The notes beneath the pieces are model-generated. The model did no database searches and was not told where the DNA came from. It saw only the letters and a program-made list of their open reading frames with translations. A stretch of 64,000 nucleotides of DNA from assembly GCA_963745075.1 (NCBI GenBank), contig CAVUWV010000010.1:320001-384000 (forward strand), read 5' to 3'. Shown here piece after piece: positions 2,943 to 5,527 of this stretch; position 1 is the first letter of the stretch; each line of letters opens with the position of its first letter. Position numbers and translations under genes: made by a program. Source of the DNA: Candidatus Hydrogenedentota bacterium. Lineage in GTDB: Bacteria; Hydrogenedentota; Hydrogenedentia; Hydrogenedentales; SLHB01.

Positions 2943-3791
2943 GCCCCAACGGGGCTCTGGGCTCTCAGCCCCAGGTTGCGCGGCACGTCGAGCCACGCGA
3001 GACGCAGGCGCGCTACCTGGGGTATGGTTGTGGATATCGATCGGGTTAGCCCAACGGGCTTATGGCCTGTTTGTTACCAAATTGACCCGGGGAGGATTCT
3101 CGCATGCCGCAATCGTTGTCTGCCGTGTTTGTGCATCTGGTCTGGTCCACCAAGGATCGCAAACCGTGGCTACGTGATCCGACGGTCCGCACGCGCCTCC
3201 ATGCGTATTTGGGCGGCGTCTCGCGGGAAATGCAGTGTCCTCCTGTCATTGTCGGCGGGGTGGACGATCATGTCCATGTCCTGGGGCAACTGGGCCGCGA
3301 GGTGTCCATCGCGGGATGGGTGAAGGAGTTGAAGCGCGTTTCCAGCATCTGGATGAAGGACGTCGATACCGAGTTCAAGGGGTTCTATTGGCAGGGGGGA
3401 TACGGGGCGTTTTCGGTCAGCCAATCAAACCTCGCGCGCGTGGAGAAGTACATCGTGGATCAAGAAACGCATCACGCGAAGTTCTCGTTCCAGGACGAAT
3501 TGCGCACGCTCTTTCGCAAACACGGGATCGAGTGGGATGAACGGTATGTTTGGGATTGAGGCCGCAACCCCTTCGGGGTAATCCCTATGATACGCCATCT
3601 TTTCCCCAGGTAGCGCTACGGCGTCGTATCGACACCGCCGCGCAACCACGCCATGGCGTGGCTGAGAGCCCAATGTCCCGTTGGGACACAAGAATTCGGT
3701 GGAGTCGCAATTCCGCAACCCGCAGGGGCTGAGAGCCGGACGTCTTGTTGGGACACAAATCCGAAGCGGAGTTGCAATTCCGCGGTCCGCA
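2943..3791. repeat. REP-like inverted flanks and a ~68-bp tandem duplication around the Y1 transposase
   Basis: GCCCCAACGGGGCTCTGGGCTCTCAGCC (~2943-2970) is an imperfect inverted match to GGCTGAGAGCCCAATGTCCCGTTGGGAC (~3660-3687); the latter unit recurs degenerately at ~3727-3791. Confidence 0.7.
3104..3559 (+). mobile_element. tnpA: IS200/IS605-family Y1 (HUH) transposase, RAYT-like
   Basis: 'VHLVWSTKDR', HUH motif 'DHVHVL', 'WQGGYGAFSVS', catalytic 'YIxxQ'; GGAGG RBS; no tnpB nearby. Confidence 0.92.
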
Positions 3792-3958
3792 CGTCATCTT
3801 CGCGCACGCGGGGACTGAATTCATGCGCCTCGATTTCTTAATTCGTAGTCTGTTAGCATGCATAGGTTGCGAGGTCACTAAGGAAAGAAAAGTGGGAAGT
3901 CTGCCTTACACTAAGTGCAAGGGGCGTATGGAGCGCCCATCACAGAAGGAGACTTCCC

Positions 3959-4984
3959 ATGAACACGACTCAAGCGTATCACTTCATCGGCCTGGACATC
4001 CACAAGCGGACCATTGCGTTTTGCGAGAAGGACCCGTTGGGCAACGTGGCGGATCGGGGGACGATCGGTGCGCGCAAGGAGGAACTGGTGGCGTTTGCGA
4101 CCTCTCGCACGCGGCCCTTCGTCGCGGGCATCGAGGCGACCTTGTTTACCGGTTGGGTCTACGACGCCCTGTTGCCGTACGCAGCCGAGCTTCACGTGGG
4201 ACATCCGCGCCGGCTCAAGGCGCTGTCGAAGAACAAGAACGACCGCATCGACGCCGAAATGCTGGCCAACCTGCTGCGGGCCGACCTGTTTCCCTCGTGC
4301 TACATGGCCTCGGCCGAGGTGCGCGAGTTACGGCGGATTCTGCGGTACCGCAACTTCCTGGTCGGACACGCCACCCGCATGAAGAACAAGGCGTCGGGCA
4401 TTCTGATGGAGACGGGCGTGGAGTACGCCAAATCCAAACTGCACGGAAAGAAGTACTTCTCCGAGCTGGTGGACAGCCTGGAAGACGTGCCACCGTCGGT
4501 GGTCAACTTGTTACGCATGACTCGGACCAATCTCGAATTGTTCACGGCCGCCCAGCGCCACTTGCTCGATGTCTTGACCCGGCATGCCGCCTTGTGCGAC
4601 CGGGTGACCCTGCTCCAGTCGGTGGGCGGCGTGGGCCAGGTTACGGCGCTGACCTGGGCCCTCGAGATCGACGACCCGCATCGCTTTTCCAACATCCGGC
4701 GCGCGCAGAGTTACTGCGGGTTGTGCTCGGCCCAACACGAGTCGGGCGACAAACAGTGGCGCATGCCCTTGTCCAAAGAACGCAACCCCCACTTACAGTC
4801 CATTCTCATCGAAGCGGCCAAGCTGGCGCCGTCCAAACACGCCCACTTGACGCGCATACGCGAGCAAGCCATAGTTCGGGGATACAACAAGAACCGCGCG
4901 ACCCTGGCCGTGGCGCGCAAACTGGTGGCCTATCTGTTGGCCGTGGACAAATCCGGGCAGCCCTTCATAGCGCCCGAGGTGTAG
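3959..4984 (+). CDS. IS110-family DEDD transposase/recombinase
   Basis: 'FIGLDIHK' (D), 'GIEAT' (E), 'KNDRIDA' (D,D); C-terminal 'SVGGVG..TA', 'YCGL.S.QHESG' (Ser) and 'AVARKL'. Confidence 0.95.
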   Translation: MNTTQAYHFIGLDIHKRTIAFCEKDPLGNVADRGTIGARKEELVAFATSRTRPFVAGIEATLFTGWVYDALLPYAAELHVGHPRRLKALSKNKNDRIDAEMLANLLRADLFPSCYMASAEVRELRRILRYRNFLVGHATRMKNKASGILMETGVEYAKSKLHGKKYFSELVDSLEDVPPSVVNLLRMTRTNLELFTAAQRHLLDVLTRHAALCDRVTLLQSVGGVGQVTALTWALEIDDPHRFSNIRRAQSYCGLCSAQHESGDKQWRMPLSKERNPHLQSILIEAAKLAPSKHAHLTRIREQAIVRGYNKNRATLAVARKLVAYLLAVDKSGQPFIAPEV

Positions 4985-4998
4985 GAGGTTTTCACATA

Positions 4999-5186
4999 CG
5001 GTTCTCCTGCCGCCGTATCCCGCCGATTAGGGACTGGGCAAGGGACACAAATCCCGATACCCCCGTAGTCTGTTTCGGGCGCGGCGGCTCTCCCAAACGC
5101 AAACATCGGACCCACGCCGTCAACGTGGTATCTGCAAATGGATGTCTGGTTGCGAGAACCTATCTCGTCAGCAAAACGGAGAACCG
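4999..5186. ncRNA. Candidate bridge/seek-RNA in the IS110 right non-coding end
   Basis: Closed by CGGTTCTCC (4999-5007)/GGAGAACCG (5178-5186); contains exact copies of both element junctions (5064-5074 and 5138-5146). Strand not established. Confidence 0.5.
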
Positions 5187-5527
5187 GAAACGACGTGATG
5201 GCGCGGCGCGCGAAACCAACCCGCGGACCGCGAAGGGGGAGTACTGCCCGAACGACGGCGGCCCGGTCGCACTGCGCTGCCTCCGACGAGCTATACGCAA
5301 GCTACCCATTCTCGGCACCGCACTACGCCCAGGCCGCCTAAGTCTCCGCCCAACAATCAGCTACCTCTTCGCCCCAAAGACGCCCAACCGACGGAATGGC
5401 AAACCGCCCGCTTTGCCTCTTGACTTATACCTATCATGGATGTCCCCAATAAGAAATCGCTATCGCGTCCGCATCGCGGGGCCGGTATCGCTCGGGCGCG
5501 AAGCGGGTTCCCACGACGGAGTGCCGC

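Follow-up and report, generated by a model that had tools for sequence, protein, structure and literature searches.

The window (the whole 64,000-nucleotide stretch of DNA analysed) carries an open reading frame for an IS110-family transposase. Matches to PF01548, PF02371 and NF033542 (188 bits against a cut-off of 140) bore out the family assignment made in a preliminary description of the locus.

3944..3951, + strand: likely ribosome-binding site AGAAGGAG, from its sequence
3959..4984, + strand: IS110-family DEDD transposase, 341 aa, with D13, E59, D95, D98 and S262 at the expected motif positions

As the broad definition of IS110 elements has it, the protein combines a DEDD RuvC-like domain with a Tnp domain holding the catalytic serine, and the element has a specific target, a single orientation, a short shared core replacing a duplication, and terminal inverted repeats absent; sequence matches and covariation point to a further item of that definition, a structured RNA in the non-coding end matching both target strands. 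Just upstream of the element (3104-3559 and 3660-3791) are an IS200-like Y1 transposase gene and two repeats spaced 67 bp apart, and at about 2530-2650 there is a REP-like repeat, about 65-90 bp long, that has dozens of matches in the genome. The host probably belongs to Candidatus Hydrogenedentota, as the closest named loci come from genomes in the same family.

We consider it very likely that the locus is an intact IS110-family insertion sequence (3851-5443) that occupies the terminal repeat of Y1-transposase elements, to which a guide RNA from its right end likely steered it. The element is real and probably recently mobile, works by a known mechanism and comes from an apparently unnamed clade.

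Copies and boundaries of the element

The preliminary description placed the element between a GT at 3845, followed by AGTCT, and a GT at 5442-5443, with TTGACT at 5420-5425; all of these letters were confirmed. Its right boundary was correct (the shared trinucleotide is TGT 5441-5443), and the short left and long right non-coding ends, given there as about 110 and 460 bp, measured 108 and 459 bp. Its left end lay 6-7 bases too far out, the AGTC after that GT being target DNA.

3839..3850, + strand: left half of the target repeat, host DNA and not element, found in 11 empty sites; contains the GT of the preliminary description
3851..3853, + strand: shared TGT, left junction, from the C31 empty site; GT 3852-3853 is the likely core, from the guide overlap
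5441..5443, + strand: shared TGT, right junction, from the second copy and empty-site comparison
5444..5459, + strand: right half of the target repeat (CCC), with an arm (5450-5459) pairing with 3831-3840 in the rebuilt empty site

A second, near-identical copy on contig C29 (2 differences) has an identical 17-bp flank. Both full copies are preceded by TAATTCGTAGTC and followed by CCC, and the left end therefore cannot be placed from these two copies alone. Three candidate left GTs were compared: with each, the C29 copy's pre-insertion site was rebuilt and searched in the genome. With TGT 3851-3853 / 5441-5443, the rebuilt 46-nt site had one genomic match, on contig C31; with the left core at GT 3845-46 or at GT 3848-49 it had 0 matches in each case. 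The left boundary was set at TGT 3851-3853 because only this join rebuilds the empty site on C31, which is a paralogue and agrees with the C29 right flank over 12 bp only. An orthologous empty allele of the window site was not found in 5 congeners, where the neighbourhood differs. Empty copies of the 14-nt target number 11 in the genome, where 0.047 were expected (reversed control, 0).

Comparison with other copies and empty sites had been proposed in the preliminary description, with different shared boundaries as the outcome that would count against it. Among relatives (49-91% protein identity) the common sequence starts at TGT and runs inward, a different boundary; the preceding bases vary, and the left target half (3839-3850) differs while the element end stays constant. 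An element running from GT 3845, with a circle promoter TTGACT-17-TAGTCT, is accordingly scarcely tenable: the upstream TAATTCGTAGTC common to both genomic copies speaks for it, but its rebuilt empty site is absent from the genome, the C23 variant and most relatives have other bases at that position, the identical bases are present in 11 element-free repeats, and its -10 is 3/6 in the window and not conserved.

Contig C23 holds a 90% variant with its right end replaced by other sequence; from C23:103064 onward the variant is broken just before the guide RNA, and the foreign sequence, probably another insertion sequence, reaches the contig end. A 350-bp fragment of the guide-RNA region (C15:145532-145877; 88% identical, left donor guide altered) lies on a contig that had no transposase match. 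At C10:396230 (minus strand), a 14-bp copy of the element right end sits within a TIR-like repeat with no adjoining transposase and is possibly a scar. Locus L178 (G262:C49) has TGT at the left junction, TGA at the right junction and no guide region; since TGA-type TIRs exist (L227-L229), it may record insertion at a mismatched core base.

Element ends and the predicted junction promoter

Junction promoters and dinucleotide cores are textbook features of the IS110 family, and for that reason the finding of the preliminary description, as written, is ordinary. Four features were placed at the ends.

3854..3859, + strand: predicted -10 hexamer TAGCAT with TG-n in front (extended -10), 4/6 consensus
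3858..3867, + strand: left arm of a bulged subterminal inverted repeat, 7 bp inside the first T of TGT
5420..5425, + strand: outward-facing -35 hexamer TTGACT
5429..5437, + strand: subterminal inverted repeat, right arm; the 3-bp extension GGA comes next

The idea that the right end carries an outward -35, to be completed when the element circularises, is supported. With the boundaries at TGT 3851-3853 / 5441-5443, circle formation is predicted to give TTGACT-18 bp-TAGCAT, whose -10 is extended, and not TTGACT-17-TAGTCT. The hexamer TAGTCT has 3/6 consensus bases and is made of target bases, which differ from relative to relative; the junction probe put forward with it, like the left end and the TAGTCT -10, contains 7 bases of target DNA. 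Formation of the promoter only on circularisation holds for the -35; the extended -10 is already present in the inserted state, since the target supplies the same TGT and with it TG-n-TAGCAT.

Both ends were parsed in 16 of the 21 loci studied, with two pairs of near-identical elements among the 16, and in 16/16 TTGAC(A/T) stood 17-18 bp from a T(A/T)(G/T)(A/C)AT hexamer, a junction-promoter motif conserved across loci. When joined, these loci gave -10 hexamers with 4-5/6 consensus bases (TTGACA-17-TAGAAT in two loci); the inserted state, in the 14 loci with flanks, scored 1-3/6. Joins of the type first proposed scored 1-3/6 in 11 of 14 loci and 4-5/6 in 3 (16 bp spacing) and, mostly scoring 1-3, are not conserved. 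The extended -10 at the inserted left end has no good -35 (0-3/6) and could supply low transcription of the kind that IS621 needs for excision (PMC13626964). A promoter scan of the linear region returned a single unrelated site, inside the ORF. No back-joint of a circle was found in four contig runs (other strains or relatives, a weak test), and read-mining for the circle junction returned no run containing half of the query words.

With one bulged base removed, the subterminal inverted repeat was paired over 9/9 bp in 14 of 17 loci and over 8/9 in the other 3; its changes were compensatory (CCTAT, CCTGT, CTTAT, CTCAT). Outside it lay a 7-bp left and a 3-bp right extension in 17/17 loci with both arms read, as counted with offsets fixed in the script.

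Predicted guide RNA in the right end

The 459-bp right end is predicted to encode a bridge/seek RNA with covarying stems. The preliminary description missed both this RNA and the repeat targeted by the element.

5009..5150, + strand: predicted bridge/seek RNA core; target-binding loop, which stem 5009-5015/5082-5088 closes, then donor-binding loop
5027..5034, + strand: predicted right target guide, of which GGGAC (5030-5034) complements GT+CCC
5064..5073, + strand: predicted left target guide; its sequence equals that of the left flank with TGT (3844-3853)
5099..5104, + strand: candidate right donor guide GCAAAC, 5/6 complementary to the left end; the weakest assignment
5138..5145, + strand: predicted left donor guide ATGGATGT, identical to the element right end (5436-5443)

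Folding an alignment of thirteen right-end regions gave three parts: outer stem, inner hairpin and a further hairpin. Over 20 named pairs, 98% of cells were paired and 12/20 pairs had two-sided changes, above all slid controls, for a structure drawn from the same 13-sequence alignment, which favours it; RNAalifold also joined the two target guides by four pairs, which are invariant and were excluded from the counted structure. Unconstrained folding of the single sequence pairs the guides together (z -0.49), 13 kcal/mol better than the open-loop form, and Rfam returned no match for the predicted RNA.

Left target guides scored 62/84 against their own left flanks over 14 loci (permuted mean, 33; 0/200,000 permutations as high), and right target guides scored 55 against their own flanks (permuted, 46.9; p 0.008), both figures being inflated by permutations that ignore kinship. 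L165 was dropped from the left-guide test as a duplicate; L166, L001, L169 and L178 had no readable RNA, L174 and L179 no left flank, and L164, L173 and L179 no usable right flank. Distant relatives (24-31%), which have different ends, were left out of the guide tests. In L081 (76% aa identity) guide and flank alike read TTCCAC, and in L167/L168 the 8-nt right guide is changed to GACAGGAC, matching the changed flank CCTGTC. Matches were partial in L164 (2/6) and in L173 and L175 (3/6 each), and the right flank of L176 misfits its guide.

In IS621, guide overlap marks the core dinucleotide (PMC11208160). The two target guides here overlap exactly on GT, for which reason GT 3852-3853 is the likely core; the GT core of the preliminary description thus probably stands, at a position other than 3845. 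Sequence comparison gives good support to three guides and leaves the fourth, the right donor guide, a candidate.

An 8-nt copy of the right end stands unpaired after a covarying hairpin in 13/13 aligned RNAs, and in L173 the left donor guide changes along with the end (a single event), both reading ATAGATGT. These observations count against a seekRNA model, unlikely in our view, in which only the target loop guides, the protein reads the ends via the inverted repeat and the donor-like segment does not pair. That model draws on ISEc11, for which 70-100 nt RNAs with target matches were sufficient (Siddiquee et al., PMC11187229), on the poorly defined right donor guide of the present element and on the compensatory changes seen in the inverted repeat. 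We prefer an RNA that would read both target and donor.

If the cycle resembles that of IS621 and ISEc11, the inserted copy would be transcribed at a low level to yield transposase and RNA, and the element would excise as a circle. Its ends, joined at TGT, would place TTGACT 18 bp before TG-n-TAGCAT and so raise expression. The first loop of the RNA would pair with both target strands and the second with the joined ends, and strand exchange would occur at the GT core with no extra bases generated.

Target repeats and related systems

Judged by its sequence, the target is a GGGGWSAS-type terminal repeat of Y1-transposase elements (TIRtrons). TIRtron repeats share GGGGWSAS (Di Nocera et al. 2013, PMC3733652), and TIRtrons/TIRYT form class 2.1 in bioRxiv 10.1101/279083; their RAYT-like Y1 gene between GGGGWSAS inverted repeats corresponds here to the target, not to the element. 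At 11/13 genomic sites (11 empty plus 2 filled) the repeat lies 8-44 bp from the match end of a Y1 gene or fragment, facing outward. The window's own site is one of the two exceptions, a lone repeat not adjoining a TIRYT gene. The target-associated Y1 transposase gene (257 aa; PF01797, 45.8 bits; NF047646, 74.9 bits, just below the cut-off of 80) has inverted repeats at both ends, which together with GGGGWSAS is the TIRtron arrangement. Fourteen rebuilt sites matched GGGGWSAS exactly (5), with one mismatch (6), with two (2) or with three (1). Many TIR copies on C20, C24, C29 and C31 have behind them short tandem re-copies of their own outer 8-25 bases.

The insertion site of the C23 variant belongs to a second repeat family, which has 18 copies and brackets another Y1 gene, and the reprogrammed element of G128/G130, with different guides, has its own matching repeat family (12 and 13 copies; 0 in three other genomes). 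The target of the present element was found in G022 and G043 (same-guide or same-flank relatives) and was absent from three others. TIRYT-like genes of other genomes are often flanked by such repeats, only 2 relatives' flanks matched the TIRYT protein directly, and within each of four other genomes the TIRs at the resident TIRYT genes mostly mismatch the left guide of the resident element. Across the clade, the part of the guide reading the conserved GGGGACAS is kept while the adjacent five or six bases vary. As a separate observation, the target repeats of L236-L239 (G128, G130) occur as inverted pairs nested in a second inverted pair starting GGGACAGCG, forming gene-free units of 250-300 bp.

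One reading of these data keeps the element and RNA as described and treats the TIRtron link as incidental, the guide reading a short motif anywhere and TIR families supplying most copies. The lone repeat at the window copy, the imperfect sites of L176 and L180 and the frequent mismatch between own-genome TIRYT TIRs and own guide all suit it. We find it somewhat unlikely nonetheless, given that the invariant guide bases are the TIR consensus, that the C23 variant occupies a second 18-copy family around another Y1 gene, and that the guides of L176 and L180 match the TIRs of the L220 TIRYT gene, from a different genome. Our tentative proposal, possible if a little short of probable, is that the clade consists of widespread unnamed bridge recombinases apart from IS621-like and canonical IS1111 elements, a TIRtron-specialist parasite in which guide bases for the TIR consensus are fixed and their neighbours retuned per TIR family, with a compact, reversed two-loop RNA in the right end and a GT core. 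If true, such a clade would provide a separate scaffold for programming and make it possible to test whether the donor of IS1111-type elements is read by RNA.

The clade is large: a protein search at E 1e-30 gave 6,596 matches, a count taking in other IS110 proteins, and the best 120 of these were 59-100% identical. No relative was found in viral contigs by protein search, and their 35 matches to a 16-nt RNA motif included 0 beside a transposase; a 401-genome sample of G135's phylum had no match at E 1e-50. Solved-structure relatives of the transposase were limited to IS621 and ISCro4 (E about 1e-7).

The organisation is IS1111-like. As in the IS1111 group (ISEc11, ISKpn4, ISPa11, ISPst6; PMC11187229), there is a long non-coding region downstream of tnp (here 459 against 108 bp), a junction promoter (here a predicted one), a 341-aa transposase, natural reprogramming, and extensions of 7 bp left and 3 bp right outside the inverted repeat. 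The IS1111 guide order is kept, the top-strand guide (5027-5034) lying 5' of the bottom-strand guide (5064-5073). The inverted repeat, usually 11-13 bp and near-perfect in IS1111 (Siddiquee, PMC11187229), is here 9 bp plus a one-base bulge, within the 7-17 bp range of Durrant (PMC11208160). Where IS1111 has the motif GL-P----S(t)G, the present clade has GLCSAxxES(G/A), without the P; GLCSA was found in 12/13 clade proteins, the 13th being mis-parsed by the pattern. Most clade transposases have ESA in place of the usual SG at the catalytic serine. The transposases form a separate 100/100 clade outside the 100/99 branch holding ISPa62 (ISPa62/ISKpn4-type), and thus outside canonical IS1111, in a small tree of 37 proteins and 10 references with long branches and unresolved deep nodes. 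Siddiquee et al. mention exceptions of this sort with a downstream non-coding region (PMC11187229).

IS621 (Durrant et al. 2024, PMC11208160; PDB 8wt6) and ISCro4 (PDB 9t56) have the same DEDD and Tnp domains, together with two features predicted for the present element, a junction promoter and a two-loop RNA in which the target and donor guides overlap at a dinucleotide core. The present element differs from them in having its RNA in the right end, a reversed guide order and weak sequence similarity (E about 1e-7), and its core is likely GT, within the shared TGT, where that of IS621 is CT. At least 11 rows in the accessible part of Durrant Supplementary Table 1 have the motif SYCGL, those listed being without an ISfinder name, and about five of the SYCGL rows listed resemble the present clade. 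The RNA and end motifs of the element were not among the readable supplement contents of PMC11208160 and PMC11187229. Published work already covers the mechanism, the junction promoter, the reversed order of the guides and natural reprogramming. What the present analysis contributes is corrected ends, three well-supported guides plus one candidate, and natural retargeting; the clade is also a ready test case for the bridge-versus-seek question, which asks whether a downstream RNA still reads the donor, and is a candidate non-CT-core recombinase.

IS4321 and IS5075, which Partridge and Hall reportedly described in 2003 as inserting into the inverted repeats at the termini of Tn21-family elements, are likewise IS110-family elements in the terminal inverted repeats of another mobile element; they target Tn21-family repeats, whereas the present element targets the TIRs of HUH/Y1 transposase genes. 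TIRtron ends thereby join REPs, attC and Tn21 repeats among known IS110 targets. ISPpu9, for one, inserts into REPs (PMC12288879). The term "IS110" had 0 occurrences in the accessible text of Di Nocera et al. (PMC3733652), the accessible part of PMC5581495 held nothing on an IS110-TIRtron link, and no paper in open-access literature listings connected IS110 elements with TIRtrons.

In Verrucomicrobiota, another multi-copy IS110 clade (L011-L080, e.g., L051-L059; about 28% identity) likewise combines a long right end with a TTGAC facing outward; it carries its right end a second time as an internal copy (AATAGGTGT), and is a second readable guide system.
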